A DNA stretch of 64,000 nucleotides from Gemmatimonadota bacterium (GCA_038153405.1 JAYOYH010000007.1:43096-107095); one strand, 5' to 3'; shown: positions 16,568 through 44,968, counted from the first letter of the stretch. Translations and numbers: made by a program. Notes: generated from the sequence alone by a model not told the origin.

Positions 16568-16584
16568 GAGAGCTCCTTTGTGCG

Positions 16585-17442: not shown

Positions 17443-17509
17443 TCGCCGTGCCGTTGCAAAAAGGGCGATTGCCCGTAATGTTTAATGAAGTGATTTAAAG
17501 GAAATTTTT

Positions 17510-19195
17510 TTGAGCGAACGGTTAACGGGGGAGCGGGCTTTGCCGCGTAAAAAAGTCTCATATGGATTTGGGCATATGCTGTGGACCATCGCACTGTCGG
17601 GCACTGTGGCGACTGTGCTCAGTGCACAGCAGGTCCATTTCGTCGACGTGACGCGGGCCGTCGGCATTGAATTTACCCATTACAATGGCGTTAGCGAAGA
17701 AAAGCGCCTGCCCGAGACGGACGGTTCCGGTGGGGCTTTTCTCGACTACGATAACGACGGCGACCTCGATCTCTACCTGGTCAACAGCGGCGATCTCATA
17801 GAGGGACGCGGACCGTGGCACAATGCGCTCTACCGCAACGATGGGTCACTTTTTGCCGACGTTACCCAAGCTACAAACACGGCCGGTGAGCGCTATGGCA
17901 TGGGGGTGGTTGCCGCCGACTACGACAACGACGGCGACGCCGATATGTATCTGACCAACTGGGGTGAGGATGCGCTCTACCGCAACGATGGGGGGTCTTT
18001 TACCAATGCGACGGGTGCGGCGGGTATTTCCAATGAGGCGTGGGGCAGCAGTGCGGCTTTTTTCGATTACGATAACGACGGCGACCTCGATCTATTTGTC
18101 GTCAACTACGTCGACTTTAGCCTTCAGACGCACAAGTGGTGTGGGCACGAGGCGCTGGGGCTGCGCTTTTACTGCGATCCACGTCAGCACAACCCCACTG
18201 TCGATCTGCTTTTTCGCAACAACGGCGATGGGACCTTTAGCGATATTGGACAGCAGGCAGGCATTGTCGAAAAGGGCAACGGCTTGGGATTGGCGTGCTG
18301 GGACTACGACAACGACGGCGATCAGGATGTCTACGTAGCCAATGATATGGAGGCCAATTTCCTATACGAAAACCAGGGGAACGGCCAGTTTTTGGAAGCC
18401 GGTTTGCTCTCGGGCACGGCGCTGAGCGCCGACGGCGCGGCGCAGGCGGGCATGGGCGTGGATACGGGTGACTTTGACGGCGACGGCGATCTCGATCTAT
18501 TTGTGACCAACTACCAATTGGAAAACAACGCGCTCTACCGCAACGACGGTCTGATGTTTAGCGACGTTAGCTTCCGCACGGGATTGGGAGAAATCAGCCT
18601 GAACTACTTGGGGTTTGGCGCTCTATTTACGGATTTCGATAACGACGGGTGGTTGGATCTATTTGTAGCCAATGGACACGTGCACGACAATATCGAGGCA
18701 TACGATAAGCTGGTTACCTATGCGCAGAAAGCGCAGCTTTTCCGCAACGAAATGGGTTCCTTTCGCGAGTTGACGGTCGATGCTGGACCGGCCTTTCAGG
18801 CAGAATACGTCGGACGCGGCACGGCGCAGGGCGACTACGATAGCGATGGAGATATGGATCTACTGTTGACCAATTCGGGCGGCGCAGCCGCGCTGCTGCG
18901 CAACGAGGGGGGCAACGCCGGAAATTGGCTGCAGGTCGATCTACGGGGAACGCTAAGCAACCGCGACGGGATAGGCGCGATTGTGCGCCTAGAGGCGGGG
19001 GGCATGCAGCGCATGCAGCAGGTCAAAGCCGGATCGGGCTATCAGTCGAGCAGCCAGAAGGCGCTCTTTTTCGGATTGGGCCGCATCGAGCGCGTTGAAC
19101 GTATTGGCATCGAGTGGCCTTCCGGGGTCAGGCAATACATACGCGATATCGCGGCAAATCAGGCGATATACATCGTCGAAGAGACGGCTCCCTAA
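17510..19195 (+). CDS. CRTAC1-family protein: FG-GAP/VCBS repeat beta-propeller plus ASPIC/UnbV C-terminal domain
   Basis: Seven or more repeats of FxDYDNDGDLDL(Y/F)V.N (FG-GAP Ca-binding motif), and a C-terminal NWLQVDLRG..SNRDGIGA.VR...G...Q....GSGYQS (ASPIC/UnbV). A signal peptide is present; the real start is possibly ATG 17576. Confidence 0.8.
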   Translation: MSERLTGERALPRKKVSYGFGHMLWTIALSGTVATVLSAQQVHFVDVTRAVGIEFTHYNGVSEEKRLPETDGSGGAFLDYDNDGDLDLYLVNSGDLIEGRGPWHNALYRNDGSLFADVTQATNTAGERYGMGVVAADYDNDGDADMYLTNWGEDALYRNDGGSFTNATGAAGISNEAWGSSAAFFDYDNDGDLDLFVVNYVDFSLQTHKWCGHEALGLRFYCDPRQHNPTVDLLFRNNGDGTFSDIGQQAGIVEKGNGLGLACWDYDNDGDQDVYVANDMEANFLYENQGNGQFLEAGLLSGTALSADGAAQAGMGVDTGDFDGDGDLDLFVTNYQLENNALYRNDGLMFSDVSFRTGLGEISLNYLGFGALFTDFDNDGWLDLFVANGHVHDNIEAYDKLVTYAQKAQLFRNEMGSFRELTVDAGPAFQAEYVGRGTAQGDYDSDGDMDLLLTNSGGAAALLRNEGGNAGNWLQVDLRGTLSNRDGIGAIVRLEAGGMQRMQQVKAGSGYQSSSQKALFFGLGRIERVERIGIEWPSGVRQYIRDIAANQAIYIVEETAP

Positions 19196-19216
19196 TGGGA
19201 AGGTCCGGTCTTGCCG

Positions 19217-20533
19217 CTATTTCTGCCCGTTGAGCTGGGCCAGCCGCTGCTGTATTTGTTCGTGCAGCGGATGGCCCGGTCCCGCGCGCTCGAGGCTTTT
19301 TTGCCACGCTTGCCGAGCGCGCACAGGGCGGCCCGCATTGAATTCACTCAGTCCGTAGGCGTACCATCCGCGCGGGTCGTCAGGCGCTAGGTGCTGCACG
19401 CGTTCGTAATAAGCGCGCGCCTCCTGGCCGCGCTTAAGCAGCTCGAGTGCCACGCCGGCGTTGAGCAGCGTGGGGATGTGCTGTGGCTGTGTGCGCAGGG
19501 CCGCTTTAAACAGGCGGAGAGCGGATAGGGGGCGTTTGTAGCGCAGCATAAGGGCGCCCATTCTTCTGTGTTGTTCGACCTCTGCACCGGGCAGTTCGCT
19601 GGCCAGATCAAACAGGTTTTCCGCTTCGTCTAAGAAACCGTGCTGGGCGAAAAAAGCGCCCAAGCGCTCGTGGTACAGGGGGGATTCCGGGGCGTTGAGT
19701 ATGGATGCACGCAGCTTTTTCATTTGCTTTGGCACGTCTGGATCGCCGGCGCCGATACGCTGTAACCGCTGGAACTTTTGCATGCTCAGTCGAGCTAGGT
19801 CGGCCCGGCCAGCGCGGCGCGCTAGCTGGGCTAAGCGGTAAAAGCCTTCGGCAAAGCCGCTGTCCAATTGAGTGGATTCAGCGAAGGCGACTAGCGCGTC
19901 GTCGTCGTTGCCTGCTCCTTCGTAGGCGCGTCCCAGATAGTAGTGCAGCGTGGAGGCATTGGGGAAGAGGCGGATGGCCTCATTGAATTGCGCAGCGGCC
20001 TCGGCAAAGCGCTCGGTTCCCAGGTATACTTCTCCCAGGCGCCGGTGGACTTCCGGTTGGTTTGGGGCATGGGTCAGCGCTTGCAATAAGTAGTGCTCGG
20101 CCGATTCGTACTGGCCGAGTTTGGTGTAAATCCCGCCCAGATTGAGATAGGTTAGGGCAAAATCAGGTCGCAGCCCGCGTATGCGTTCCAATGCGGCAAT
20201 GGCAAGCGCATAGCGCCCTTCAGAGGCGTGCGCTGTAGCCATGATATTGAGAAGGTCAACGGAGGTCGAATCGATCGCCAACCCCGCTTGGCAAGCGCTT
20301 ACCGCTTCGAGATACTGCCCGTTGACCATGTGCTCCTGCGCGCGCTGCAGGTGGTTTATAGAGGATTGACTTGGGGGCAGGGGGACCGGGGCGGTTTGCT
20401 CCGTCTGCTGGGGGGCGTCGTCGCAGGAGCAGTAGGCGATGGCCAGCAGTAGGAAGATGGTCCACTGCAGAGGCGTACGGGTCCGTTGGGGTGGTCGGCG
20501 CAATAGGGCGTGCAGTGCGTTGGCGTTGGGCAA
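19217..20533 (-). CDS. TPR-repeat lipoprotein
   Basis: An N-terminal signal with AYCSC lipobox-like Cys, and more than 8 TPR-like 34-aa units (A..Y..LG..Y...G.Y..A...). Confidence 0.75.
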   Translation of the reverse strand: MPNANALHALLRRPPQRTRTPLQWTIFLLLAIAYCSCDDAPQQTEQTAPVPLPPSQSSINHLQRAQEHMVNGQYLEAVSACQAGLAIDSTSVDLLNIMATAHASEGRYALAIAALERIRGLRPDFALTYLNLGGIYTKLGQYESAEHYLLQALTHAPNQPEVHRRLGEVYLGTERFAEAAAQFNEAIRLFPNASTLHYYLGRAYEGAGNDDDALVAFAESTQLDSGFAEGFYRLAQLARRAGRADLARLSMQKFQRLQRIGAGDPDVPKQMKKLRASILNAPESPLYHERLGAFFAQHGFLDEAENLFDLASELPGAEVEQHRRMGALMLRYKRPLSALRLFKAALRTQPQHIPTLLNAGVALELLKRGQEARAYYERVQHLAPDDPRGWYAYGLSEFNAGRPVRARQAWQKSLERAGPGHPLHEQIQQRLAQLNGQK

Positions 20534-20664
20534 AAGAAGAAAACCGTGGTTCTTTTATCGTAGACGGAATGCGTACGGAGTCGGATCAGCCAAGCAATAT
20601 AAGCTATTTTGGAGTGTATATTGAACTGCAAGGGTAGAAAAGTGCGTGGAGAATCAACTTTCTC

Positions 20665-21933
20665 ATGAGCGCAAAACAAAGAAAACTTGAACAGCACCAG
20701 CGCGATCAGCGCCAGCGTCGGCGGTGGATGGCCATCGGCTTACTCGCGGCGATTGGCCTGGGAGCCGGCTACTGGCAGTGGCAGCGCACCGTCGATGAGC
20801 GCGAGGCTGCCGAGGCGTTGCGCCGCGGAGATCAGCTTATGGCGCAGGGAAGTGTGCTACAAGCCATTGCCGTCTACCGACGGGCTGTGGAAAGGGCACC
20901 CGAACGAGCAGATGGCTGGGTGAAAATTGCGTCGGCGCATGCGGCCGCCGAGCGCTTTGCAGAGGCAGCGCCGCTGTACGAGCGGGCGCTGGATCGGGAT
21001 CCGGCCCATTTTGAAGCGCGCATTGGTCTGGCCATAAGCCGAGAGCGGCTCGGTGAGTTCTTGGTAGCGGAAGCGCATTACAAAGCAGCCATTGGGCTTC
21101 GGCCGACCTTTGCCGAGATCTACTACAACCTCGGTTATCTGTATCAGCAGCAGCGCTTGTATCAAAACGCAGCGCTCCAATATGAGAAAGCCCTCGAGCT
21201 AAAGCCAAAGTTTATTGGCGCATTGGCCAATTTGGGATGGGTCTGGGACCGACTACACGATCCAGGTAAGGCCGTGGATATATATAAGAGGGCGTTGGCC
21301 CTAAAGCCAGATGAGGTGCCCATATACGTGCGGCTAGGGGCCAGCTATATGAGTATGAGCCAGTATGAGGAAGCAAGGACGGCCTATGAGAAGGCGCTGA
21401 GCTTGGGCGACGAGCGCCCTTCCGTTCTGCATGATTTGGGCGTTATCAATGAACAGGGGGGGCAACTTGAAGAAGCGCGCGTCTATTTTCGCCGGGCTTT
21501 GCAGCAGCAGCCGAGGGCCAGTGAAACGCATTTTCACCTGGCCGGCGTGTTGGATCAGCTAGGGGATCGGGTGGGAGCCGAGGTGCATTTTCGCCGGTCT
21601 ATTGAGTTAGATCCGGATAATGCGGGCGCACATTATGGTCTAGCGCAGCTCTATTTTGCGGTTGGGCGCGGCCAAGAAGGACAGGCATTGTTGAAGATCT
21701 TTGCCCTGCTGAAGGAGTATCAAGGGCGACTGGTCCCGTTGAAGCGCGCCGTGGAACAGGCACCGCGCGATGCACAGGCCGCATACGACTTGGCCCAGTT
21801 ACATATAGAATACGGCCGAGTGCAAAAAGGCGCCGCTATCCTGCAGCGCATTCTCGAGTTGAATCCCGATTTTACAGAAGCGCAAAAACGCCTTGGAGAA
21901 ATCGCGGAGCCATCGAAGGCCGATAGGCTCTAA
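20665..21933 (+). CDS. TPR-repeat protein with an N-terminal membrane anchor
   Basis: A TM segment (WMAIGLLAAIGLGAGYW) and then about 10 TPR units (AHYKAAIGLRP..AEIYYNLGYLYQQQ.. and others). Its 3' end overlaps the convergent downstream gene by 4 nt. Confidence 0.75.
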   Translation: MSAKQRKLEQHQRDQRQRRRWMAIGLLAAIGLGAGYWQWQRTVDEREAAEALRRGDQLMAQGSVLQAIAVYRRAVERAPERADGWVKIASAHAAAERFAEAAPLYERALDRDPAHFEARIGLAISRERLGEFLVAEAHYKAAIGLRPTFAEIYYNLGYLYQQQRLYQNAALQYEKALELKPKFIGALANLGWVWDRLHDPGKAVDIYKRALALKPDEVPIYVRLGASYMSMSQYEEARTAYEKALSLGDERPSVLHDLGVINEQGGQLEEARVYFRRALQQQPRASETHFHLAGVLDQLGDRVGAEVHFRRSIELDPDNAGAHYGLAQLYFAVGRGQEGQALLKIFALLKEYQGRLVPLKRAVEQAPRDAQAAYDLAQLHIEYGRVQKGAAILQRILELNPDFTEAQKRLGEIAEPSKADRL

Positions 21934-23657
21934 GGCTGGATCGTATAGGGGTTGGAACGCAGGTTAATCGCGCTGTGCGAGCCACCCTGATGCACGACGA
22001 GGAGTTGATTAGCCGCTAGGTCGAGCAGGCGCTGGTTCGTTCCGTTAGGCCAGGTAATATCGACAGCGTCAATGCGTTCGGCCGCGCCGAGGCCAAATTG
22101 GGCGCGCAGGTCGCTGTGCGATAGATAGCTTCCAGCGCCGTTAATGCGCCGGCGCTGGCGTACGTCCCCGCTGGTAACCTCGATCAGCGCGCCGACTCCG
22201 TCGCGGCTGTCCGCACGGCCGATAAGCTGCACGTACAGCCAATTTTGCCGGTTGCCACCCTCGTTGCGCATCAGCACGGCGCGATCGTTTAAGTTGACGA
22301 CTAAAATGTCGAAGTCGCCGTCATTGTCATAGTCGCCAAAGGCCGCCCCTCTGCTGACCTGTTCAAGTGCGAGCGCGCGTGCGGCTTCTACTTGCTTAAA
22401 GCGCCCGTTTCCGACGTTGGAAAAAAGTTGGTTGGGTTGCCTGTAGCGCGATCCCGTATCGATGCGGTCGACCTGAGGGTATACGTGGCCGTTGGCCACG
22501 AACACGTCCAATAGCCCATCGTTGTCAAAATCGAAAAAGCGCGTCCCCCAGCCCATTAAATCAATGGTGGGTCCGGCTAGGCCTGCCGTCGTCGTCACAT
22601 CGGTAAAGCGCAGGCCGCCTTCGTTGCGGTATAGCGTATTGGTTTCGCTAAAGAAATGGGTGACGTAGACGTCGGGATCGCCGTCGTTGTCGTAATCGGC
22701 AAAGTCGACGCCCATGCCCGCCTCGGTGTCCCCATCGGCATTGTAAGCGACGCCAGCCATTAACGCGACGTCTTCAAACGTGCCGTCTCCGCGATTGTGG
22801 AAGAGGACGTTGGGCGTTTCGTCGTTGGCGACAAAGAGATCCAATAGCCCATCGCCATTGTAGTCTTCGGGCACGACTCCGAGGCCGTAATAGCGGTTGG
22901 CGCGTCCGATGCCGGAGGCCTCCGTGACGTCGGTAAAGACGCCGTTGCCCTCGTTGCGGTAGAGTACGTCTGGCGCGCCGACCAATCCTTTGGGGCCGCA
23001 GTAGACCTGCAGGCCGCCGTAAAAGGTGCAGAGCTGGGGGTCAGCAGGGCGATTTTCGGCGTCAAAAACGACGTAGTTAGTGACGTAGAGGTCGAGGTCG
23101 CCGTCGTTATCGTAGTCGAAGAACGCCGAACTGGCACTGAAGTCATCGCCCGCAGTGCCGGCTGCCTGCGTGCCATCGACAAAGGTACCCCTGCCTTCGT
23201 TGAGGTAGAGCATATTGGCGCCAAAGTTGGTGACGTAGAGGTCGCGATCGCCATCGTTGTCGACGTCGCCGACGGCAATGCCCGTACCCCAACCGGCGTG
23301 GTCTGCACCGGAAGCGGCGCTGTGGTCGGCGTAGTGCCCCTCGCCGTCGTTGAGGTAAAACTGATTGCCCGGCCCCGACTGATCTAAATAGGTTGAAAAG
23401 GTCGCTCCGTTGGGGAGATACAGATCTAAGTCCCCGTCGTTATCTGCATCGAAAAAGGCCGCACCGTTGCCGTGCGCTTCCAGCACGTAGCGCTTGTCGA
23501 GGTCGCCGCAGACATTGTCATAAGCAATGCCAGCGGCCTGTGTTTGGTCGCTAAAGTGCACCTGTGCCGACAGCGCTAGAGGGGCGAGGGCAAAGCCATG
23601 CCCGAGAATAATCGACTTGATCAATTTCGACTTCGTACGAATGCGTGATGGCCTCAT
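21930..23657 (-). CDS. CRTAC1-family FG-GAP/ASPIC-UnbV protein (paralog)
   Basis: A signal peptide, repeated F.DYDNDGD.DLYV.N motifs, and a C-terminal NWLYVQLIGRADSRDGVGALIEV...GAGSYLS. Confidence 0.8.
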   Translation of the reverse strand: MRPSRIRTKSKLIKSIILGHGFALAPLALSAQVHFSDQTQAAGIAYDNVCGDLDKRYVLEAHGNGAAFFDADNDGDLDLYLPNGATFSTYLDQSGPGNQFYLNDGEGHYADHSAASGADHAGWGTGIAVGDVDNDGDRDLYVTNFGANMLYLNEGRGTFVDGTQAAGTAGDDFSASSAFFDYDNDGDLDLYVTNYVVFDAENRPADPQLCTFYGGLQVYCGPKGLVGAPDVLYRNEGNGVFTDVTEASGIGRANRYYGLGVVPEDYNGDGLLDLFVANDETPNVLFHNRGDGTFEDVALMAGVAYNADGDTEAGMGVDFADYDNDGDPDVYVTHFFSETNTLYRNEGGLRFTDVTTTAGLAGPTIDLMGWGTRFFDFDNDGLLDVFVANGHVYPQVDRIDTGSRYRQPNQLFSNVGNGRFKQVEAARALALEQVSRGAAFGDYDNDGDFDILVVNLNDRAVLMRNEGGNRQNWLYVQLIGRADSRDGVGALIEVTSGDVRQRRRINGAGSYLSHSDLRAQFGLGAAERIDAVDITWPNGTNQRLLDLAANQLLVVHQGGSHSAINLRSNPYTIQP

Positions 23658-23661
23658 GAAC

Positions 23662-25965
23662 CTATTCTGTTTCGGTGAAGTGCAGCACTTGGTTGGTCTG
23701 TAAGGGACCGTGCCGCTCGCTCTGTCCAGAGGGCCAGTAGATATGCAGGCTATCTACGATCTCTTGCTGACCGAGACCGAATTCGAGCGCAAAGCTGCTG
23801 GTCGAGCCAAAGCCACCGCCGCTCTGGATTTCGGCGCGGAGCGCGCGTCTGCCGCTATAGACAACGGCCTGGGCGCCGATGGCGGAAGTGTTGGGGGGGC
23901 GTCCCTCTATATCGACGCTGAGCCACCGGTTGGAAGTTCCTTCGTTGCGGTAGAGGCTGTTGGGCCACAGGTCGCCGGGATAGTGGCCGCCGAGCCCCAC
24001 GTAGAAGTCTACATCGCCGTCGCCGTCGTAGTCGGCAAAGGCGACGCCGTGGCCCTTACCTTGATTGTCGACGCCGGCATCGCTGGCCACGTCCACATAG
24101 CTACCGTCGCGGGCGATAAAAAGCGCATTCGGCTCAAAGCGCGCCATAATAGGGCCGCCATTGGCCAGGTATATATCGATTTGCCCATCGCCGTCTAGGT
24201 CGCTGTAGCCGGCCCCCATCGAGCCAAATGCGCGCGCTAGGCCGGCGTCGGGTGCCCGTTCGTGAAAGCGATCGTTGCCGTCGTTGCGGTAGAGGTGTGC
24301 GCGACTGCGGTAGATGCCTGCGTCGCTCGTGGCCGAGGCCACAAAGTCCTCGTAATAGGCCATCGCCGAAACGAAAATATCTAGGTCGCCGTCGCTGTCG
24401 CTATCAAAAAAGAGGGGGACATAGCTGCCGTTGACCGGCGCGCTGACGCCGGCCTTTTCTGCCATATCGGCAAAGCGACCGCCGTCGTTGCGGAAGAGGC
24501 GATTGGCACCGGCGACATTGGCCACGTAAAGATCGAGATCGCCGTCGCCGTCGTAGTCGCCAAAGGCCACGCCCAAGGATTTGCCCACATCGTCTATGCC
24601 AAAAGGCGCTGCGCGCTCGCGGAACCTCCCGCTTCCGCTGTTGATATACAATTTGTTGGGTGCCCCGCTGCCGGTTACGCCGTCGGCCACGTAGAGGTCT
24701 AGCCAGCCGTCGCCGTCGACGTCGCCCCAGGCGGCGGTAAAGCTATCGTCTCCGTCTTCGGTGCCCGCTGTCGCCGCGATATCGGCAAAGCGCGCGTAGC
24801 CGTCGTTTTGGTAGAGGGAGTTGACCTCGGCACCTTCCCACGCGTCGCGCGTCACGTAGAGGTCGCTATCGCCGTCGCCGTCAAAATCGGCAGCAATGGC
24901 GGCCCAGCCCCCGATGTGTTTATCCAGTTCAGATCGCTCCGATGCGGGTGCAAAGCGTCCGTTGTCCTGTATAAACAGCCCGTGAGGTGTGGATATCCCG
25001 ACGGTGAAAAGGTCGAGATGGTCGTCGCCGTCCAAGTCGGCCCACGCTACGCCGCGGCCGCGGTCGGTTTTGTCGACCCGGTTTTCTGGCGCCACGTCGG
25101 TAAAATGCACCGGAGACGGCTGCTGCCCGTGTGCAGGTGAAATGACGTAGGCGGATGGCAGATTGCCCGGATAGGTAGCGTGTGCTGCTAGGTAGGCCAG
25201 GCGCAGGTTCCAGAGGCGCACCGGCCGCTGCGGAGAAGCGGAGGGCAGAACGTCGATTGCGCGCTTATAGGCTTCGATGGCGCCGATAAAATCGCGCTGC
25301 CAGTGTCGTGCCGTGGCCAGTAAAAAGGGCAGATGCAAATCGTCGGGGGCCTTTTGCAGGAGATCTTCAAAATCGCGCTCGGCGCGTTCAAACTGTCCCA
25401 ATCGCAGGCGCGAAGCAGCGGCCCCGGCCTTGGCCTTGACCATTTCGGGATCCACTTTCAGAATGGCCTCATACTGCTCTAAGGCTCCCTCTGGACTGGG
25501 GGGTGCATCCGTCATTAACACATCGGCATAGGCCATGCAGGCCGGCGTAAAGGTTGGAAAGCGCTCGACGATGAGCTTGAGCAGTTTGCGCGCCTCGCCG
25601 TCGCGTCGCATCATGCGGTATACCTGTGCCAGTTGAAAGGGCGCGTCAACGCGCAGAGTATCCAGCCGTATGGCGCGCTGAAGAATGGGGATGGCTTGTT
25701 CTAACTGGCGCTTGCGCATACTGATTTCGGCTAGGCCGAGCAGGGCCGTATACTCCGTCGAGTCGCGCAGGACGATTTGGCCAAAGAGCACACGCGCTGA
25801 ATCGAGCTGGGAACGGGCTACGAGCTGCATGGCCCGTTCATAGAGCGCGGGGATGTGCTCTTTAGATGGAGGTTCCGGTTCGGGTACAGGATCACAGCTA
25901 ACCACTGCGATCGCTGCTACAACAACGAATAGGGCCGAACGGGCAATGCGCATACGGGCAGTCAT
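23662..25965 (-). CDS. Fusion lipoprotein: N-terminal TPR region plus FG-GAP/ASPIC-UnbV beta-propeller
   Basis: The start was chosen at the internal Met (MTARMRIARSALFVVVAAIAVVSC, lipobox), which avoids overlap with the upstream gene. The N-terminal ~300 aa are TPR-like; the C-terminal 500 aa have FG-GAP motifs and an ASPIC tail (RWLSVDIEGRPPNTSAIGA). Confidence 0.8.
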   Translation of the reverse strand: MTARMRIARSALFVVVAAIAVVSCDPVPEPEPPSKEHIPALYERAMQLVARSQLDSARVLFGQIVLRDSTEYTALLGLAEISMRKRQLEQAIPILQRAIRLDTLRVDAPFQLAQVYRMMRRDGEARKLLKLIVERFPTFTPACMAYADVLMTDAPPSPEGALEQYEAILKVDPEMVKAKAGAAASRLRLGQFERAERDFEDLLQKAPDDLHLPFLLATARHWQRDFIGAIEAYKRAIDVLPSASPQRPVRLWNLRLAYLAAHATYPGNLPSAYVISPAHGQQPSPVHFTDVAPENRVDKTDRGRGVAWADLDGDDHLDLFTVGISTPHGLFIQDNGRFAPASERSELDKHIGGWAAIAADFDGDGDSDLYVTRDAWEGAEVNSLYQNDGYARFADIAATAGTEDGDDSFTAAWGDVDGDGWLDLYVADGVTGSGAPNKLYINSGSGRFRERAAPFGIDDVGKSLGVAFGDYDGDGDLDLYVANVAGANRLFRNDGGRFADMAEKAGVSAPVNGSYVPLFFDSDSDGDLDIFVSAMAYYEDFVASATSDAGIYRSRAHLYRNDGNDRFHERAPDAGLARAFGSMGAGYSDLDGDGQIDIYLANGGPIMARFEPNALFIARDGSYVDVASDAGVDNQGKGHGVAFADYDGDGDVDFYVGLGGHYPGDLWPNSLYRNEGTSNRWLSVDIEGRPPNTSAIGAQAVVYSGRRALRAEIQSGGGFGSTSSFALEFGLGQQEIVDSLHIYWPSGQSERHGPLQTNQVLHFTETE

Positions 25966-26780
25966 TCGATAACGTAGTCGATGCCCGTCAGTTCCTGCAG
26001 CGCTTTGCGAGCGGCTTCGGCATCGGGGCCTTGGCGCTGTTTCAATAAGTCCAGCAGCGCCTCTGCTGAGGCCGTATCCCCCCGAGCAGAAATTCCACGC
26101 ACCGCTTCCAAACGGACCCACTCGCTGGGGTCTTGCAGCGCCGCGCGAAGCAGGGGCAGTGCGTCATCGATGGGGCGAATGGCCGCTATTTGGGTGGCGA
26201 TATAGCGGACCTTTTCGTCGGGGTCGCGCATGGAGCGCAATACGGCCGGCGCGGCACTCGGCGACCAGATTTTATTGATGGCGGCCAGGGCGCTCTGGCG
26301 CACGATGGCGATACTATCGCCAAGCGCTAGCTGGAGCACGTGCGTAGCCGATGTGTCGCGGAAGCCGGGTAGGCCCTCCGCTGCGGCGGCGCGCAGATCG
26401 GCGTGGGGCGAAGAGAGTAGGAACTGTCGCACGGTATCGAGGAGAGCCGGCACGTGGATCTTCGACAGCGCGAGGACGGCTTCTTTGGCAATGTGCGTAT
26501 TGGGGTCGTGGGCGAGTGCGCGCAGCGCGTTTTCGGCGCGGGGGGAGCCTATCCGGCCGAGGACCTGAGCGCCTATATAGCGCAGGGTATCCGAGCCGCT
26601 GTCCATGGCTGCGATGAGCGGTTCAACGGCCGTGCTGCCTTGGTCGACGAGGCGATAGGCCGCTTTGCGTCGCACCGCCGACGAGGCATCGGCTAAATCG
26701 CTTACGAGCTGGTCGGTGCTGTGTTGCTCACAGCCCAGACAGCAGAGCAGAGCGATGACTAAGTATCGAGGGAACGGCAT
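25962..26780 (-). CDS. HEAT-repeat (PBS-lyase-type) lipoprotein
   Basis: The signal peptide ends LLCCLGCEQ (lipobox). Repeated A..A(A)..L(G)..(G/R)...A...L..LL.D.d..VR..A helical hairpins fit HEAT/PBS repeats. Confidence 0.7.
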   Translation of the reverse strand: MPFPRYLVIALLCCLGCEQHSTDQLVSDLADASSAVRRKAAYRLVDQGSTAVEPLIAAMDSGSDTLRYIGAQVLGRIGSPRAENALRALAHDPNTHIAKEAVLALSKIHVPALLDTVRQFLLSSPHADLRAAAAEGLPGFRDTSATHVLQLALGDSIAIVRQSALAAINKIWSPSAAPAVLRSMRDPDEKVRYIATQIAAIRPIDDALPLLRAALQDPSEWVRLEAVRGISARGDTASAEALLDLLKQRQGPDAEAARKALQELTGIDYVIE

Positions 26781-26876
26781 GGCGGGAAATGGGGGATTGC
26801 ACTGTTCCGAGGGGAAGATACCTCTCGGAACAGCGCGTTGTATTTAAGCAGTGAGAAAATGGATCGCAGTGCGGTC

Positions 26877-28058
26877 TCAGTTGACCATCTGCATAAGGCG
26901 CTGCGTCATGGAGCCTTCCTGAGTCAGCGCGTAGACGATGACGTTGATCGCCATTTGCATCTGGCGCAGCTTATCCTGCCCTTCAACGGATTCCGTATAC
27001 CCCAGGCCGAGGCTGAAATCGATTCCTACGAGGCGCCCCTTTATAAAGTGTCCCGTGGTATATTGCCAAGCATTTTGGTTCTTGTTGGAACTGGTTCCGC
27101 GCGTCGAAGTAGGCGCTCCCCCTTTGAAATCGAAATAGGAGCTGAAGACCGGGTGGTCGTCTGGGAGGCGCTCAGACCAGAAATCGCGGCCCTCTACCAA
27201 ACCGCCGTACTTTTCGAGGCCCTCTTTAACAAAACCGATGCCGCCAAAAATAAATCCGCCGGACAGCAGATAGCGGGTCATCTGCTCCAATTCGCTCTCG
27301 TTGGGTGCACCTGCGGGCAGGATAATGGGTATTTCCAATAGGCGATCGTCGTCGTAGGTGATGCTGCCGATGAAATCGGCGCTGATGCCCGTATACTCGT
27401 TCAGGCCGTTAACTAAAAAGCGCAGATTATTGGTCGATCCGGTCGCCGTGCCCGAAGCCAGTGCGGCAGCAGATATTACGCGGGCAAAGTTGATGAACCC
27501 TTTAATGGCCTGCGGATCGCCCTGTTCCTGCACGAGCATGGCGCGGTAGCGTCCGGTGTCCATGCTATTGACGTCGAGCATTTCAAGCGCCATATCGATT
27601 TTATTGTCCGGTTGGCGCGTGCCCGTAATGTCTACGGCGGTCATGGAAGGCTCCAGGGCAACCGTCCCCAAATCCACGGAGCGGGCCACCATCATCGATG
27701 GGCTTGCAGTCATGTTGAGTGCGGAAATGGTGCTAAAACTGGCCGTGGCCTTCACCTGGTCCATCCGCGCGCGCGTGGCTACGGTCTGGCGCTGGATCAT
27801 TTGCCGTTTGGGTTTGGGGATCTTGCGCAGTTCAAGTGGCTTGGTCAGCCGCGGTTCGCGCTTTATGAACTTGGTCGTCAGCGGCCTTGGAGCCGTCTCA
27901 ACCGTCTCTTCCAGGGGATCGATGATCGCCGCGCAAAGGTGGATGAGCACGGCGAGTATCAGCGATAATAGGAGATACTTATGGAGCTCTTTGAGAAGAA
28001 TCTCAGGATGGAACGATCGGGCGGGTGAAACAAAGCGCCGCGCAATGCCTGAACTCAT
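26877..28058 (-). CDS. Hypothetical membrane-anchored protein, possibly DUF4159-like C-terminal domain
   Basis: An N-terminal TM (YLLLSLILAVLIHLCAAII). The C-terminal segment TRYLLSGGFIFGG...RDFWSERLPDDHPVFSSYFDF resembles the DUF4159 signature as I recall it. This is a tentative assignment made from memory. Confidence 0.45.
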   Translation of the reverse strand: MSSGIARRFVSPARSFHPEILLKELHKYLLLSLILAVLIHLCAAIIDPLEETVETAPRPLTTKFIKREPRLTKPLELRKIPKPKRQMIQRQTVATRARMDQVKATASFSTISALNMTASPSMMVARSVDLGTVALEPSMTAVDITGTRQPDNKIDMALEMLDVNSMDTGRYRAMLVQEQGDPQAIKGFINFARVISAAALASGTATGSTNNLRFLVNGLNEYTGISADFIGSITYDDDRLLEIPIILPAGAPNESELEQMTRYLLSGGFIFGGIGFVKEGLEKYGGLVEGRDFWSERLPDDHPVFSSYFDFKGGAPTSTRGTSSNKNQNAWQYTTGHFIKGRLVGIDFSLGLGYTESVEGQDKLRQMQMAINVIVYALTQEGSMTQRLMQMVN

Positions 28059-29131
28059 TGTAAAACCCTTTTCTCGTAGTGAACGGGCCGCTGCTTTGAA
28101 AAGACGAGATCGCCGATGCCCAGTGTCTGACCGCGTTTACGCACAGCGCGCTCCAACTTGTGGAGTCGCACCGTTGCCGAAGTGGGACCGACGGCTACTA
28201 CTTTTACTCGGCCCAGCTTCATCTGCCTGTTTTCTCGCTGGAACACATCGAGCTGCATCCCTTCAATAATGCCATGATTAGCCCCTCTGTCAATGCGATA
28301 CTGAGGTCGGTTGTCTTCATCGGTCGCTAGGATGGTGGAGATCGTTCCCCACAGGGGCAGGTGTGCGTCAATTTGGGGCAGGAGATCGCGTATCATGCAA
28401 TCGATGAGATGGCCGCCGATGGCCGCATCGTTTTCGAGTGGGGATAGATACCAGCGGTCAGCGGAATTCAGCATGCGCAGGGAGGGTGGGTTTTTAAAGC
28501 GCTGACGCATAATCGGTGCTACGTAATCGCGTATGACCTCGGGGTGGGTATAGCCCGGATATTTGTCGGGATTGTAAACAAATCGGTTGTCGTGCTGCAG
28601 CATGATAGTGCTATCCTGTAAAGCGGACCAGACGATTTTATCGCGCTGGGTTTCTATCAGTCTAACTTCGATCGCCGCGCTCAGTGCGGGAAGAGCGGCT
28701 ACTTCTCTGGGCTGAGAGTCGGCGGAACCGGAAAGCGTGGCTGCACTCGGCTCTGTGTAATACAGTGTGCGGTTGCGGTACAGCCTATCGATGCGCCGCA
28801 GCACGAAGTGTAAAACAAAGTCGATGCCTTCCTCCGCTTGAAATACGCTTCGTCCCCGCTGATCTAACTGTGCCGCTCGCGAGACCAGCCTGCAGCGGGG
28901 AAGGGTACCCAAGCCCCGCATTACGCCTTTTTGGGCCCGATAGCTTGCCGACTCGTATAGCGAATCGAGATGATCCCATCGCTTATCGGCGTCGGTCTCG
29001 TCGCTGAATGCGATGGCAACATTTAGGTGGGGTCTGGCCTGTAGGGCAGAGGGAGCAATTAGACCGAGGAGGATGCTCCACGCGCTCCACCGTATCATGA
29101 GCCTCTTTTCGTAGTCTATATTGAGCGCCAA
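28055..29131 (-). CDS. Hypothetical secreted protein (first gene of the long minus-strand operon)
   Basis: Signal peptide (MIRWSAWSILLGLIAPSALQA). No known motif. There is a 4-nt overlap with the downstream gene. Confidence 0.5.
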   Translation of the reverse strand: MALNIDYEKRLMIRWSAWSILLGLIAPSALQARPHLNVAIAFSDETDADKRWDHLDSLYESASYRAQKGVMRGLGTLPRCRLVSRAAQLDQRGRSVFQAEEGIDFVLHFVLRRIDRLYRNRTLYYTEPSAATLSGSADSQPREVAALPALSAAIEVRLIETQRDKIVWSALQDSTIMLQHDNRFVYNPDKYPGYTHPEVIRDYVAPIMRQRFKNPPSLRMLNSADRWYLSPLENDAAIGGHLIDCMIRDLLPQIDAHLPLWGTISTILATDEDNRPQYRIDRGANHGIIEGMQLDVFQRENRQMKLGRVKVVAVGPTSATVRLHKLERAVRKRGQTLGIGDLVFSKQRPVHYEKRVLQ

Positions 29132-29285
29132 ATTGTGCGTAAAAATACATCTGCCTTAAGGCAATAACAATAATTATTTTTTTAGTTGTATGGGATTTTA
29201 AGATATAGACAACTATAGCCAAACACAGGCAATGCAATGCGTTTATGAATTTGTTAAGAATTTTGAAAAAGGGGGCGATATGATC

Positions 29286-29314
29286 TTGACTTTGGTTGCA
29301 CTGCCAATTATCTT
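29286..29314 (+). promoter_or_regulatory. Sigma70-like promoter TTGACT-17-TATCTT in a ~270-bp AT-rich divergent intergenic region
   Basis: TTGACT at 29286-29291 and TATCTT at 29309-29314. The island at 29132-29400 is far more AT-rich than the flanking DNA and separates divergent operons. Confidence 0.35.
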
Positions 29315-29414
29315 GGCCAATCAAGTAGACATTTTTTTACGCTCAATACCTAGGCTCTAATCGCGCAGCGTGCGCGGGGATGACCTAAGGTGTTTTTCTT
29401 CAAGGAGAAGAAGT

Positions 29415-30347
29415 ATGAGGAAGCTGAGCATAGCTGCAGCTGCAGTGGTCGGTTTGGCCGGTGCCGCTTTCGCCCAGGGCGAAAGGGTATTCGACCTGCC
29501 GAAGCTTACCCAGGCACCCGTTCTCGACGGTGTCATTGACGGCGATGAGTGGAACGGTTCGCTCGAACTCGACTGTTCCCCCTCGCGCGTTCAGGCCGAC
29601 GGTGCCGAGTATGGCTGGCGCGACATCGAAGCCCAGCAGAGCGAAGTTAGCGTCAATCAGTTGGTGCAGTCGGATGGCGAAGATGCCGCGATTGCCCGCA
29701 CCGATGCCGACTTCAGCTCGCGCATTTGGCAGGCTTGGGATGACGACGGCCTGTGGGTCGTAACCGCCGCTGCCGACAACGTCCATGACGTTGAGGGTGG
29801 TGACCGCGGTTGGGCCTGGTGGGAGCGCGATAGCCTCTCCCTCTACGTCGATCTGCTCAACGAAAAAGAAGAGTCTGTGCTCAACGGTGAATACACCGCG
29901 CTGAATATCATCAACTTCCAGGCTCGTCCGCTTGAGTCCAGCCCCTACACCGTTTCGTGGGCCCGCACGGTTGAAAATGCGCGTTCTGACGAAGACGGTA
30001 ACGATCCCGACCTCGTCGCTGGTTTCGACAACGGCTATCGCGACGCAGGCGACGAGTTTGGTGGCGAAGCAGACTACGTCCTTGAGATGTTTATTCCCTG
30101 GGAGAACCTGCTCCGTTTTAACCTGCCCGCCACGCCGGTCGTCGGCACCGAGATGGGTTTCTCTTGGCTGCCGCCAGATCCGGATGGCGATGACGCCTAC
30201 GGCGGTCAGTTGCAGTGCTGGGGATGGGCTGATGACCCCTCCAACTACTCCACTTGGATCTTCTCCGACATGCCGGCTGGTCCCGCTGGTGGCAGCACGG
30301 CCGTCGAGAGCGATTCATGGGGTCGCATCAAGACGACGTTCCAGTAA
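29415..30347 (+). CDS. Secreted CBM9-like (carbohydrate-binding family 9 / DOMON-like) protein
   Basis: AAGGAG Shine-Dalgarno 8 nt before ATG 29415. The signal peptide ends AFA-QGE. The mature N-terminus LTQAPVLDGVIDGDEWNGS matches the CBM9 opening motif (P.IDG..DE.W), and later W/D-rich beta strands follow. Confidence 0.65.
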   Translation: MRKLSIAAAAVVGLAGAAFAQGERVFDLPKLTQAPVLDGVIDGDEWNGSLELDCSPSRVQADGAEYGWRDIEAQQSEVSVNQLVQSDGEDAAIARTDADFSSRIWQAWDDDGLWVVTAAADNVHDVEGGDRGWAWWERDSLSLYVDLLNEKEESVLNGEYTALNIINFQARPLESSPYTVSWARTVENARSDEDGNDPDLVAGFDNGYRDAGDEFGGEADYVLEMFIPWENLLRFNLPATPVVGTEMGFSWLPPDPDGDDAYGGQLQCWGWADDPSNYSTWIFSDMPAGPAGGSTAVESDSWGRIKTTFQ

Positions 30348-30512
30348 GACTGGGCTTTATAGCCTGATGTAAAGGTCGTATTGTTGAGTTTCATGCCGGG
30401 GAAGTTACTTCCTCGGCATGAAACCTATAGAGGCCTATGCCTTTTTTCACTACAATACAAATTTGGATACGTGCCCGTGCGGGTGCGTGTCGAGGATGAC
30501 GGGGAGCCGACG

Positions 30513-33500: not shown

Positions 33501-33518
33501 GTCATAACGCCATTCTAA
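30513..33518 (+). CDS. Large (~1000 aa) predicted outer-membrane beta-barrel protein with an acidic Ca-binding-like insert (paralog A)
   Basis: The GTG start at 30513 is preceded by GGGGAG and gives the signal peptide MKTPFKVNLSQIARFLALVGLWTLASQADA. The C-terminus ...FFVEVITPF carries the terminal Phe typical of OM beta-barrels. It is a strong paralog of 37552..40482. It lacks TonB-box/plug motifs, so it is not a classical TBDT. Confidence 0.7.
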   Translation: MKTPFKVNLSQIARFLALVGLWTLASQADAQRHPESQGPLPYYRDEPGVLPEPEWLHRPEFIRGPRDRYERGANRLFLATGDDVPYLNYAEERFILSQRELIPWFQPKGRSWKFRNTRWDRMGNYMGSPSSTSSPASGYLRLFSWEETRSDDDGLGRSFIDHRSPSPWGPPAGYNDATLRIGHYNYKDLHWTATVGQSVRSYFTPLTLAQSHLSVARLDFDNKFGKDRATILLNRGRTRPGGLFSEWASVGGETEDANPVLMYGLHYKHRFGRYAQFGTTLLNQVLNQPGSGSSSPLKGDLPYDMLGPRVIRVFIADDSPRESLHNAKVYGVDIVVRGTRGDQPVTLSNRQGEFYDPGLEPVVAGGRLLSGDGREAVGLETVVYEFTIPGDITATSARFFADVSNDYRIGIRQIYDFPGISRSGELDLEERVWPDDFVTTESVTRRPFKWDIQEGEEPYYTVARSEGVGQNGSNRRVVQFDHGIPTGQNLFSFDAQANLIGLKFSGEIVRNNQNYIYPVGRNDGRRTSHKALAYWLNVKKDIGIAKRLGAQLGAEFFRLDPSYSGGYDSQRGGMAFHLDLQESPGGRVKSDTQEYGLVEDNDDDDQWPDDFVEDTASPGRLSYPGWPNASVYPGLDENLDNIPDVDRNENFVPDWNEAFLTYDVDPPEFVYGIDFNNNGMPDFRENDDLPDYPYRRDQKGRHFFLLLDRLGGWGKSISAGYYKSNEIAGGTEAKSMYLRYALEKQRDGVGSLQINIDTKIVEDNIQDDSYVYIVPPNDDDVIPWLNKPDHHPDVAGRYRPATPDPLLMRDSWVNTAYIDADYLKIANMRIHNALLWTRNSMSEIPLEGGGDGELLQAEDVRSRLIVINKVDRTWLLKSIAISTKFKHRLIYENVDSEEDPRISASDFIPIVMGEYALTPKTRLVLGAQGMPFLPMKHWDRANKDGTYSQTDYAFMYKMRSEYFGFENDFFFGYLLTDRQHTRLRDRDFNRGTFFVEVITPF

Positions 33519-44504: not shown

Positions 44505-44519
44505 AAGAGGAGAAGGGGG

Positions 44520-44966: not shown

Positions 44967-44968
44967 CC

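Follow-up and report, generated by a model that had tools for sequence, protein, structure and literature searches.

A lineage-conserved cluster of CRTAC1-like propeller proteins with TPR and HEAT partners beside a divergent envelope locus

The closest described counterpart of the proteins reported here is vertebrate CRTAC1 (cartilage acidic protein 1/ASPIC; PDB ID: 9ETN), in which an FG-GAP Ca2+-binding β-propeller is likewise followed by a UnbV_ASPIC domain. In bacteria, the multi-copy status of ASPIC/UnbV genes was already noted for Solibacter (PMC3174227) and for the Poribacteria, sponge symbionts in which the family is expanded and counted among the eukaryote-like repeat proteins (PMC3909097). 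As the initial annotation of this DNA had stated, the bacterial homologues have no established function: no functional study was found in the searchable literature, and no ligand, enzyme activity, or interaction is reported there for any of them. The family is large (14,872 clusters of 50% identity at E ≤ 1e-30), and most of its members come from free-living soil Acidobacteriota. We compared 139 CRTAC1-like genes in 80 loci of ~20 kb from several phyla; these loci are not phylogenetically independent, and gene calling in them was crude. At least two CRTAC1-like genes were present in 36 of the 80 loci. Of the direct neighbors of the 139 genes, 39% were TPR genes, versus 5% of other genes (odds ratio 11, p = 3e-28; non-independent loci). 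This adjacency occurred in 52 of the 80 loci, and 68 of the 94 TPR pairs were co-directional. Among 10 long family members sampled with Pfam, TPR fusions were N-terminal in four and C-terminal in four. Multiple copies and TPR adjacency or fusion are thus the norm for the family, and the triplication with TPR proteins, initially described as unusual, is not so. The pairing of a propeller with helical-repeat proteins is already known and common in several bacterial phyla.

The window, that is, the whole 64-kb stretch of DNA analyzed, contains exactly three CRTAC1-like copies, designated A, B, and C. All three lie in the cluster at 17510–29131 (Table 1), together with two stand-alone TPR proteins (TPR1 and TPR2) and one HEAT-repeat lipoprotein; one of the three CRTAC1/ASPIC-UnbV proteins is fused to TPR. 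Pfam bears out the earlier domain calls for these six genes, and their positions are as first given. The two promoter-proximal genes, whose products the initial annotation left undescribed, encode a DUF4159 protein and the orphan protein unk358. Export signals were found on all eight cluster products when the N termini were read by eye, and all of the products appear to be exported.

Table 1 Features of the cluster and its surroundings
Feature	Position	Strand	Size or composition	Basis
CRTAC1-like paralog A	17510..19195	+	561 aa	Pfam, Ca motifs, N terminus by eye, L001 orthologue, tree
Stand-alone TPR protein 1 (TPR1)	19217..20533	-	438 aa	Pfam, N terminus, orthologues
Divergent intergenic region TPR1/TPR2	20534..20664	.	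131 nt, GC 0.42	
Stand-alone TPR protein 2 (TPR2)	20665..21933	+	422 aa	Pfam, N terminus
Terminator-like GC hairpin, then CTTTTTG	21830..21849	-		Consensus scan only (E. coli-style)
CRTAC1-like paralog B	21930..23657	-	575 aa	Pfam, PDB 9ETN match, orthologues
Paralog C	23662..25965	-	767 aa	Pfam; start 25965 agrees with database gene calls
HEAT-repeat lipoprotein	25962..26780	-	272 aa	Pfam HEAT_2 (E = 6e-42); lipobox by eye
RNA hairpin, no U-tract	26799..26836	-	13+2 bp stem	Folding versus shuffles
Membrane-anchored DUF4159 protein	26877..28058	-	393 aa	
Orphan exported protein unk358, Sec signal peptide	28055..29098	-	347 aa	
AT-rich divergent control region, unk358/CBM9-like gene	29099..29415	.		
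Start of divergent conserved envelope locus (secreted CBM9-like protein and giant orphan protein)	29416..33518	+		Pfam CBM9_1

In A, B, and C, seven FG-GAP_3 stretches (E = 3e-48, 3e-49, and 6e-40, respectively) are directly followed by a C-terminal UnbV_ASPIC domain (PF07593), whose matches (E = 1e-18, 4e-19, and 2e-16; 67.2, 68.6, and 60.3 bits, cutoff 23.4) cover the whole model length. Binding of Ca2+ is predicted from DxDxDG-type motifs (Dx[DN]x[DN]G), which number seven in A, seven in B, and six in C. B matched the CRTAC1 structure 9ETN with E = 5e-22, and the family profile matched it with E = 4.5e-50 in an alignment running through the UnbV_ASPIC tail. The repeats, the tail, the Ca2+ loop motifs, and the homology to CRTAC1 place all three proteins in the CRTAC1/ASPIC-UnbV family. 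By eye, A carries a Sec-type signal peptide (..TVATVLSA/QQ) ahead of its seven-bladed FG-GAP Ca propeller and UnbV_ASPIC tail, and B carries a Sec signal peptide (..LAPLALSA/QV). C has a lipoprotein signal (..AVVSC) and an N-terminal TPR region fused to the CRTAC1-like propeller and UnbV_ASPIC tail. The pairwise identities among A, B, and C are 43/31/34%. Their orthologues form separate clades, each with 100/100 bootstraps, and an exclusive grouping of A with B was recovered in 0/100. A phylogeny had been suggested initially as the way to separate recent from ancient duplication; the identities of 31 to 43% and the fully supported clades indicate that the three paralogs diverged anciently.

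The DNA comes from a marine bacterium related to the Latescibacterota (WS3), and the cluster is conserved within this lineage. It is syntenic in five Latescibacterota-type genomes (L001, L002, L003, L004, and L085), down to ~50% protein identity, and the paralogs are clustered there; scattered paralogs, which the initial annotation had named as speaking against its interpretation, were not seen. The A orthologue in L001 is 72% identical, and TPR1 orthologues are present in L001, L002, L003, and L085, the same four genomes that keep the convergent layout of B and TPR2. The B orthologues (62–74% identical) adjoin the HEAT gene in all five genomes, and the HEAT gene is always immediately upstream of B. 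The C orthologues are 50 to 68% identical, and their position differs in L002, L003, and L085.

Each propeller is matched to a TPR module: C by fusion, B by its convergent neighbor TPR2, and A by its convergent neighbor TPR1. The recurrent TPR–CRTAC1 module as defined here therefore occurs in the fused form in C and in the adjacent form in A/TPR1 and B/TPR2. TPR1 and TPR2 are pure TPR proteins in Pfam. As read by eye, the N terminus of TPR1 is hydrophobic with Cys residues, and the protein is possibly a lipoprotein or signal-anchored; TPR2 has a basic segment followed by an N-terminal transmembrane anchor, and the N terminus of the HEAT protein is lipobox-like (..LLCCLGC). The start of unk358, placed initially at TTG 29131, is replaced by ATG 29098, which has a GAGG ribosome-binding site and gives a product identical to a 347-aa database protein. 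The resulting N terminus (MIRWSAWSILLGLIAPSALQA/RP) has no Cys and hence no lipobox. No sequence match to unk358 was found in Pfam, NCBIfam, or PDB. In its structural model (pLDDT 66.7, low to moderate), the N-terminal half is predicted to have a PelC/LptE/CsgG/HpaA-type fold, and the best structural matches are HpaA, a flagellar LPHT-ring protein, PelC, CsgG, LptE, and the N-domain of TolB. The DUF4159 protein is the best conserved of all cluster proteins. An N-terminal transmembrane helix is followed by a basic Pro-rich segment, which is conserved, and the C-terminal DUF4159 domain (PF13709) exceeds the Pfam gathering score and is modeled with a GATase1/ThuA-like fold (pLDDT 58.4, likewise low to moderate).

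The five minus-strand genes between 29098 and 21930 are co-directional with short gaps or overlaps, and their junctions are as first described: overlaps of 4 nt at 28055/28058 and 25962/25965, a gap of 96 nt between DUF4159 and HEAT (26781–26876), and a gap of 4 nt between C and B (23658–23661). The unk358 stop overlaps the DUF4159 start, and these genes form a translationally coupled pair. The further proposal of one long operon is put in doubt. The RNA hairpin in the 96-nt gap (ΔG −34.1, z −5.9; equaled by 0/200 shuffles) stops 18 nt short of the HEAT start codon and is unique within the window. In orthologues, the same junction is occupied by an intrinsic terminator of canonical form in L002 and in L003; L001 has a hairpin there, and in L085 a gene on the opposite strand is inserted. 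The hairpin of the window is probably an attenuator or a processing or stability element that splits unk358–DUF4159 from HEAT–C–B. No promoter-like site was found between the hairpin and HEAT in a sigma-70 scan of E. coli style, which may not suit the host phylum. Because the hairpin has no U-tract and the stretch behind it is too short for a promoter, attenuated read-through is likelier than full separation; the hairpin and the orthologous terminators and insertion therefore point to two units, unk358–DUF4159 and then HEAT–C–B, the latter probably transcribed by read-through. B is the final gene of the minus-strand unit, and its stop codon overlaps that of the convergent TPR2 by 4 nt. The terminator-like hairpin that lies within the 3′ end of TPR2, ~80 nt past the B stop codon, is likely the end of the HEAT–C–B transcript. 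A, TPR1, and TPR2 each stand alone on their own strand outside this unit, and A is monocistronic. Among the outcomes that would refute the single operon, a terminator within it had been named at the outset, and the strong hairpin between DUF4159 and HEAT is of that kind.

The AT-rich divergent region upstream of unk358 is real and recurs in orthologues (GC 0.34 in L001, 0.42 in L002, and 0.34 in L085), but its earlier limits of 29132–29400 become 29099–29415, since the flanking genes start at ATG 29098 and ATG 29416, the latter being the start of the CBM9-like gene (310 aa gene call). The GC content of this island is 0.38 versus 0.58 for the window, the lowest of all intergenic gaps in the window. 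Sigma-70-like hexamers were matched on both strands using an E. coli-style consensus that may not suit the host phylum, and the island has no Rfam match. The divergent locus encodes the CBM9-like protein, two giant orphan proteins, lipoproteins, a discoidin-like protein, a 1090-aa TPR protein, and ExbB-ExbD-ExbD; the window also holds a sulfatase. The first giant orphan (1013–1045 aa) ends in ..VITPF, and its paralog lies at 37501–40482. Their signal peptide and C-terminal Phe make them likely outer-membrane proteins, and homology to transporters is not detectable. The CBM9-like and giant-orphan genes are syntenic with the cluster in L001, L002, L004, and L085. On the same Latescibacterota chromosome, a second CRTAC1-like locus (L005) also lies ~2 kb from a giant-orphan homologue.

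Here, we propose, tentatively, that the locus is a conserved exported cluster, split into units by the hairpin, whose ligand-binding propellers are tethered by TPR and HEAT proteins and serve the adjacent outer-membrane/ExbBD locus. The island would drive unk358–DUF4159, the conserved intercistronic hairpin would lower or process read-through into HEAT–C–B, and A, TPR1, and TPR2 would each be transcribed alone. With low confidence, the TPR and HEAT proteins would be membrane-tethered adaptors that keep the propellers, themselves soluble, in the periplasm or close to the outer membrane. The ligand bound there, and possibly also modified, by the propellers would be a polymer, most likely a glycan; in an accessory role, they would capture it for, or hand it over to, the neighboring outer-membrane apparatus driven by the proton motive force. 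These steps are equally provisional. A role in nutrient or glycan handling is suggested because, elsewhere, the family is neighbored by LacI regulators, TonB-dependent-type barrels, Laminin_G_3 genes, ABC permeases, and FGE-sulfatase-domain genes. The last were adjacent to a CRTAC1-like gene in 11/11 cases (p = 9e-8) and fused once; for the barrels, direct adjacency showed no significant enrichment relative to the remainder of those loci (odds ratio 1.7, p = 0.16). An assembly for envelope biogenesis or polymer export rather than uptake, in which the propellers, the TPR lipoproteins, and a PelC/LptE-like protein would behave like BamB/BamD, TolB/CpoB, or PelB/PelC, is unlikely. It would help insert the adjacent giant outer-membrane proteins or export a surface polymer through them. 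The modeled resemblance of unk358 to ring- or plug-forming envelope proteins would fit such an assembly, as would the ExbB/ExbD (TolQR-like) genes on both sides, the tight linkage of unk358–DUF4159 with the divergent locus in every orthologous genome, and weak TPR matches to PilW, YbgF, BamD, and LapB-type models, all of them sub-threshold (YbgF, 34–43 bits versus 90; BamD, 19 versus 81). However, no Pel, Lpt, Bam, Tol-Pal, or OmpA-like family was found above threshold, and unk358 lacks the lipobox of PelC, LptE, and CsgG. Several divergent copies per locus, and LacI regulators and FGE-sulfatase-domain genes nearby in other phyla, are not expected of a housekeeping assembly factor.

A role of the propellers as surface adhesins, or as eukaryote-like proteins of the integrin/CRTAC1 kind that bind a matrix, is quite unlikely. 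The cell would then attach through them to particles, algae, or host tissue, and the TPR and HEAT proteins would be the scaffolds that anchor them. Homology to the extracellular-matrix protein CRTAC1, weak similarity to integrin α propellers, Ca2+ motifs in every blade, and the expansion in sponge-symbiont Poribacteria (PMC3909097) agree with adhesion, but A and B have plain Sec signals with no recognizable surface-sorting or anchoring domain, the family is mostly from free-living soil bacteria, and the N-terminal transmembrane anchor of the partner TPR2 implies the inner membrane, which favors a periplasmic location. Very little probability is given to the propellers being enzymes, such as Ca2+-dependent β-propeller polysaccharide lyases or hydrolases with paralogs differing in substrate. 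Several polysaccharide lyase families are Ca2+-binding β-propellers, and divergent paralogs with sugar-type regulators and transporters nearby in other phyla fit substrate diversification. Against this, the propellers have no sequence match to solved enzymes, their PDB matches being only CRTAC1 and integrins, and nearly every invariant residue is a Gly, Asp, or Asn in the structural Ca loops; no separate catalytic motif stands out. Chance assembly of functionally unlinked neighbors in a genome where CRTAC1-like and TPR genes abound is disfavored as highly improbable: members of both families are very numerous, A, TPR1, and TPR2 would be transcribed apart from the other cluster genes, and the position of C varies among genomes, yet the gene set stays together at ~50% protein identity in five genomes, TPR adjacency is enriched 11-fold, and fusions are common in both orientations.

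As to known systems, unk358 has neither the lipobox Cys nor a family-level sequence match of the PelC/LptE/CsgG lipoproteins, whose fold its model may share. Membership in Tol-Pal or BAM was rejected; TolB, Pal, BamA, and BamD were not recognized, the only TPR matches being generic and sub-threshold. The TolB propeller is from another family, whereas the window propellers are FG-GAP and not TolB- or BamB-type, and the window ORFs scanned included no recognizable Pal/OmpA-like or Pel gene. The likeness to Bacteroidota polysaccharide utilization loci (SusC/SusD) may be one of functional analogy only: exported accessory binders with an energized outer-membrane transporter, and carbohydrate-binding-type domains (CBM9-like and discoidin-like) nearby. 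No SusC/TonB-dependent receptor or SusD family was matched in the ~50 window ORFs scanned with Pfam. Integrin α-subunit propellers share the seven FG-GAP blades with DxDxDG Ca2+ loops, but the similarity is marginal (E ~1e-4 to 1e-2), and the β-subunit partner, thigh/calf, and transmembrane tail are missing here. Vertebrate CRTAC1 carries an EGF-like domain after the UnbV_ASPIC tail; no Pfam domain follows the tail in A, B, or C. In contrast to the vertebrate protein, with which identity is low, the window proteins are bacterial, carry Sec or lipoprotein signals, and have TPR either as a separate partner or in fusion. The multi-copy ASPIC/UnbV genes (“CRTAC1 family protein”) of Acidobacteriota, Poribacteria, and Planctomycetota have the same architecture, a length of ~550 to 600 aa, several copies per locus, and an adjacent or fused TPR gene. 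The present cluster differs from them in its HEAT lipoprotein, DUF4159, and orphan partners, seen only in Latescibacterota-type loci, and in its stand-alone TPR genes, which are convergent here, whereas the co-directional arrangement is usual elsewhere.

The gene set proposed for the cluster in the initial annotation was borne out by the ORF listing and Pfam (see the table). Three CRTAC1-like paralogs, here called A, B, and C, combine an FG-GAP propeller with an UnbV_ASPIC tail, and tblastn found exactly three such copies in the 64-kb window. The propellers each contain six or seven calcium-loop motifs (Dx[DN]x[DN]G..D), and the DNA repeats of the cluster region are the coding FG-GAP blade repeats only. 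B matched a human CRTAC1 chain in the PDB (9ETN; E = 5e-22); with a 20-sequence family profile, the E value was 4.5e-50 and the alignment reached through the UnbV_ASPIC tail, while the remaining PDB matches were integrin alpha propellers only, all marginal. A lookup of B by exact sequence in public contigs found no copy. In NCBIfam, the CRTAC1-like, DUF4159, CBM9-like, and giant (~1000-aa orphan) proteins and the orphan exported protein unk358 had no curated-model match, and the TPR and HEAT proteins gave only generic matches below threshold. Relaxing Pfam to E ≤ 10 gave no meaningful match for the orphans. The start of unk358, initially placed at a TTG codon (29131), was moved to the ATG at 29098, and a database protein of identical length and sequence exists. 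Four short Logan contigs from the same organism also carry unk358 (sequencing runs SRR26337540, SRR26337541, SRR26337549, and SRR26337550), and independent gene calling on them reproduced the series of 347, 393, and 272 aa with its 4-nt overlaps, as well as the start of the CBM9-like gene.

Features of the cluster and its neighbourhood (window positions)
Feature	Position	Strand	Description
Second, divergent ExbB-like gene	14495-15271		Left of the cluster; with small downstream ORF (span 14495-15687)
A	17510-19195	+	7 FG-GAP_3 stretches and full-length C-terminal UnbV_ASPIC (Pfam)
TPR1	19217-20533	-	TPR only (Pfam)
TPR2	20665-21933	+	TPR only (Pfam)
Terminator-like hairpin and CTTTTTG	21849-21830		~80 nt past the B stop codon (consensus scan)
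B	21930-23657	-	7 FG-GAP_3 stretches and full-length C-terminal UnbV_ASPIC (Pfam)
C	23662-25965	-	7 FG-GAP_3 stretches, full-length C-terminal UnbV_ASPIC, and N-terminal TPR region (Pfam)
HEAT (lipoprotein gene)	25962-26780	-	HEAT_2 (Pfam)
DUF4159 protein	26877-28058	-	393 aa; C-terminal half DUF4159, 37.3 bits (cutoff 25.9; Pfam)
unk358	29098 (ATG start)	-	347-aa orphan; GAGG before start
AT-rich divergent island	29099-29415		Between unk358 and the CBM9-like gene
CBM9-like gene	29416 (start)	+	310 aa
Giant orphan	30381-33518	+	1013-1045 aa, ends ..VITPF
Giant paralog	37501-40482		993 aa; 35% identical to the giant orphan
ExbB and two tandem ExbD-like genes	43836-45418	+	Right of the cluster; ExbD-like 44520-44966 and 44969-45418
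302-aa ORF	45095-46003	-	Overlaps the ExbB/ExbD-like genes; probably spurious
DUF6785+DUF6784 membrane protein	50229-52133	+	
1551-aa protein	52155-56810		Peptidase_M28 and FtsX-like permease domains
DUF6785+DUF6784 membrane protein	60796-62802	-	

Export signals were judged by eye from the N-termini. Sec-type signal peptides were recognized in A, B, unk358, and the CBM9-like protein, and lipoprotein-like N-termini in C (..AVVSC) and HEAT (..CLGC; ..LCGC in the L003 orthologue); for TPR1, the N-terminus is ambiguous. In TPR2 and the DUF4159 protein, a single TM helix comes after a basic N-terminus, so their bulk is probably periplasmic. Judged from these signals, all cluster products appear to leave the cytoplasm.

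The pairwise identities of the paralogs are 43% (A/B), 31% (A/C), and 34% (B/C). A neighbour-joining tree built from 143 propeller sequences placed each paralog with its own orthologues and A nearest to Poribacteria and other Latescibacteria copies. In a 36-sequence subset, the orthologue groups of B, C, and A were each recovered in 100 of 100 bootstraps and an exclusive A+B group in none of 100. A recent triplication is ruled out by the low identities and the separate clades, which settles a point that the initial annotation had left to a phylogeny of the ASPIC paralogs. Judged from these sequences, the triplication is old: it happened before the lineages with orthologues of ~50–66% present-day identity split off.

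Relatives of B were sought in one genome per species, which gave at least 578 loci. The closest among them is L001, from a Tara Oceans MAG (74% identity), followed by L002–L004 from Candidatus Latescibacterota MAGs (62–66%). L001 retains the whole region in the same order; the shared stretch begins with the ExbB-like gene to the left of A and extends to a 1045-aa protein right of the island. The GC content of the L001 locus is 0.47 versus 0.58 in the window though the proteins are 49–93% identical, a large difference in composition for relatives that are fairly close. In L002, L003, L004, and a further locus, L085, the proteins are ~40–66% identical to those of the window; all four keep unk358–DUF4159–HEAT–B, the divergent series of CBM9-like, giant, and lipoprotein genes, and TPR2 convergent with B. 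C and TPR1 are placed after TPR2, not between HEAT and B, in L002, L003, and L085, and among the syntenic loci compared, an A orthologue occurs in L001 only. The shared gene order in these five loci means that the paralogs are clustered in related genomes and not scattered, the alternative considered at the outset.

In the initial annotation, the minus-strand operon was driven from the AT-rich divergent island, and this island held up: its GC content (0.38 versus 0.58 for the window) is the lowest of all intergenic gaps, and its counterparts in L001, L002, and L085 are likewise AT-rich. Sigma-70-like hexamer pairs occur on both strands of the island as consensus matches, in a scan that may not suit the phylum. 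In an alignment with the L001 counterpart, the island showed little conservation and yielded no shared motif. Rfam gave no match in 16500–30500, so neither the island nor the gaps contain a known riboswitch or sRNA. The best sigma-70-like match of the region (28293–28266, minus strand; TTGACA-16-CATTAT, extended TG, 10/12) falls within the coding sequence of unk358, with the DUF4159 start ~210 nt further downstream; it may represent an internal promoter or have arisen by chance.

The sole real gap in the minus-strand series, between the DUF4159 and HEAT genes, folds into a long hairpin (ΔG −34.1 kcal/mol, z −5.9), and none of 200 shuffles folded as well. This hairpin has no counterpart elsewhere in the window, lacks a U-tract, and stops 18 nt short of the HEAT ATG. 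At the same junction, intrinsic terminators of textbook form are present in L002 and L003; their 15–19-bp stems are followed by UUUU(U), and they end ~19 and ~21 nt before the start codon, respectively. A different hairpin is present in L001 and none in L004. In L085, an opposite-strand gene (11287–12981; SLFN_AlbA_2, HATPase_c_4, and AlkZ-like matches) lies exactly at this junction, and apart from this insertion the cluster is syntenic. What is conserved in the junction element is its position and shape, and not its sequence. The stretch from the hairpin to HEAT is too short for a promoter and contained no promoter-like match in the consensus scan, which points to attenuated or processed read-through into HEAT rather than two independent promoters. 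The series would then be expressed in two tiers, unk358–DUF4159 first and HEAT–C–B second. A, TPR1, and TPR2 are single genes on their respective strands (A/TPR1 convergent, TPR1/TPR2 divergent, and TPR2/B convergent). The description "mostly one long operon" can therefore stand for at most five of the eight genes, and these five are interrupted by the hairpin break.

The arrangement had also been called unusual, and this did not survive the wider comparison. A full HMMER search of 1.84 billion cluster representatives gave 78,092 relatives of B with the cutoff at E ≤ 1e-3; tightening it to E ≤ 1e-30 left 14,872 (~14,900), counted as 50%-identity clusters. Eighty loci, spanning Acidobacteriota, Poribacteria, Latescibacterota, Planctomycetota, Binatia, and others, were fetched, and their genes were called crudely at the ORF level. 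Of the 80, 36 contain at least two CRTAC1-like regions within ±10 kb, and the set contains 139 CRTAC1-like genes, including 15 fused to TPR. TPR proteins make up 75 of 193 direct neighbours (39%) versus 34 of 636 other genes (5%), with an odds ratio of 11 (p = 3e-28) in loci that are phylogenetically non-independent and were chosen through one query. A TPR gene is directly adjacent in 52 of the 80 loci, and 68 of 94 TPR/CRTAC1 pairs are co-directional. Ten longer family members, picked by length, comprised four N-terminal and four C-terminal TPR fusions, one FGE-sulfatase fusion, and one tandem double CRTAC1. The TPR fusions argue, with high confidence, for a physical or functional partnership between TPR and propeller. 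That ASPIC/UnbV genes occur in several copies had been noted before for Solibacter usitatus (PMC3174227) and Poribacteria (PMC3909097). Family size, multi-copy loci, and TPR adjacency elsewhere rule out a unique or unusual cluster. The proteins clearly belong to known families, and the cluster is an ordinary instance of a common, uncharacterised CRTAC1–TPR module with Latescibacterota-specific additions; among the loci examined, homologues of HEAT, DUF4159, and unk358 lie beside CRTAC1-like genes in Latescibacterota-type loci only.

In loci outside Latescibacterota, the commonest non-TPR direct neighbours were TonB-dependent-type barrels (CarboxypepD_reg + OMP_b-brl_4; 12 loci), FGE-sulfatase-domain proteins (11 loci), DUF6785/DUF6784 membrane proteins (seven loci, Poribacteria and one Latescibacteria locus), LacI regulators (five loci), and Laminin_G_3 proteins (three loci). 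Barrel adjacency was considered as support for uptake, but its enrichment is not significant (p = 0.16), and it is therefore kept as weak context. FGE-sulfatase (SUMF1-like) genes are highly specific, being adjacent to CRTAC1-like genes in 11 of 11 cases (p = 9e-8; L005, L011, L027, L048, L060, L062, L063, L066, L067, L070, and L078), and protein P0213 fuses the two domains. The FGE-sulfatase domain is a second strong partner of CRTAC1-like proteins besides TPR. The DUF6785/DUF6784 adjacency suggests a link to CRTAC1 that is not obvious within the window, where two such membrane proteins are encoded.

Across the island, the conserved plus-strand series encodes the CBM9-like protein, the giant orphan, two lipoproteins, a discoidin/FlgD_ig protein, a 1090-aa TPR/YfiO-like protein, and ExbB with two ExbD-like proteins. 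Both giants are ~1000 aa long, with a signal peptide, a C-terminal ..F, and a conserved core rich in Asp, Asn, and Pro. Their family comprises 41 database clusters, mostly Latescibacterota, and searches of Pfam and the PDB, including with a profile, found no relative; they are likely a new outer-membrane protein family. L005, a second CRTAC1-like locus on the Latescibacterota chromosome of L002, lies ~2 kb from a giant homologue.

Here, we conclude with high confidence that the cluster consists of lineage-conserved exported envelope proteins, with three CRTAC1-family propellers of ancient origin and the TPR partners of these at its core. A chance neighbourhood is disfavoured, as the conservation and the fusions speak against it. 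As to function, we tentatively propose that the TPR and HEAT proteins act as adaptors tethering the propellers, which may bind a polymeric ligand, plausibly a glycan, and that this binding would serve the ExbBD-linked outer-membrane apparatus next door. The propellers might instead mediate adhesion or matrix binding, or be enzymatic. A further alternative, a role in envelope assembly or polymer export, has in its favour the fold matches of unk358, whose AlphaFold2 model (15 homologues; pLDDT 66.7, pTM 0.59) is of moderate quality and resembles PelC/LptE/HpaA-type envelope proteins at the fold level only. unk358 has no lipobox and no match in Pfam, NCBIfam, or PDB sequence searches; it is the fastest-evolving cluster member (49% identity in L001), and its family is tiny (17 database clusters).

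Beyond the proposed ligand binding for the adjacent apparatus, a broader and rather unlikely reading is that the CRTAC1-like propeller and its TPR partner form an unrecognised, phylum-spanning module of two parts, periplasmic or at the surface, that would act as an accessory for substrate capture or hand-over to energised outer-membrane transporters outside Bacteroidota. Its partner would be the TonB-dependent-type barrels in Acidobacteriota and the orphan ~1000-aa outer-membrane protein family with ExbBD in Latescibacterota. If so, the cluster would exemplify the module in compact form, with three paralogs and additional HEAT, DUF4159, and PelC-like components, and a family of >10,000 clusters, to which the ancestor of human CRTAC1 belongs, would gain its first assigned function.

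Among soil and marine bacteria, proteins of the CRTAC1 family are very abundant. The statement that the bacterial homologs have no established function agrees with the searchable literature, where no functional study of any of them was found; a "CRTAC1 family protein" gene is merely noted inside hydrazine-synthase-like clusters (PMC12758564), and vertebrate CRTAC1 is studied as a disease biomarker. Searches on DUF4159 function and on FG-GAP proteins in PULs or in Latescibacteria likewise found no functional study. The locus does not reveal the function of the family; comparative work gives testable handles, namely the TPR partnership, which is statistically strong and includes fusions of either orientation, the strong FGE-sulfatase-domain partnership in Poribacteria and relatives, and the arrangement conserved in Latescibacterota, in which the propellers are linked to a HEAT lipoprotein and the orphan outer-membrane/ExbBD locus. 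If the propellers are ligand-capture accessories for outer-membrane transport, this would bear on polymer turnover by uncultured Latescibacterota, Acidobacteriota, and Poribacteria.

The DUF4159 protein is the most conserved cluster member (92% identity in L001 and 50–55% in L002–L004 and L085), with 452 homologues annotated mostly as Latescibacterota; a PDB search by sequence returned noise only. Its AlphaFold2 model is usable for residues ~187–380 only. Residues 56–186 were unmodelled despite very high sequence conservation, and with the N-terminal half missing, the model gave no functional insight. After the TM helix, a basic, proline-rich segment (PRPLTTKFIKREPRLTKPLELRKIPQPKRQ.., residues ~56–110) is almost invariant across homologues that are ~50% identical overall, and AlphaFold leaves it unstructured. 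The topology of an anchor, a Pro/Lys linker, and a globular domain is similar to that of TonB, as a resemblance only.
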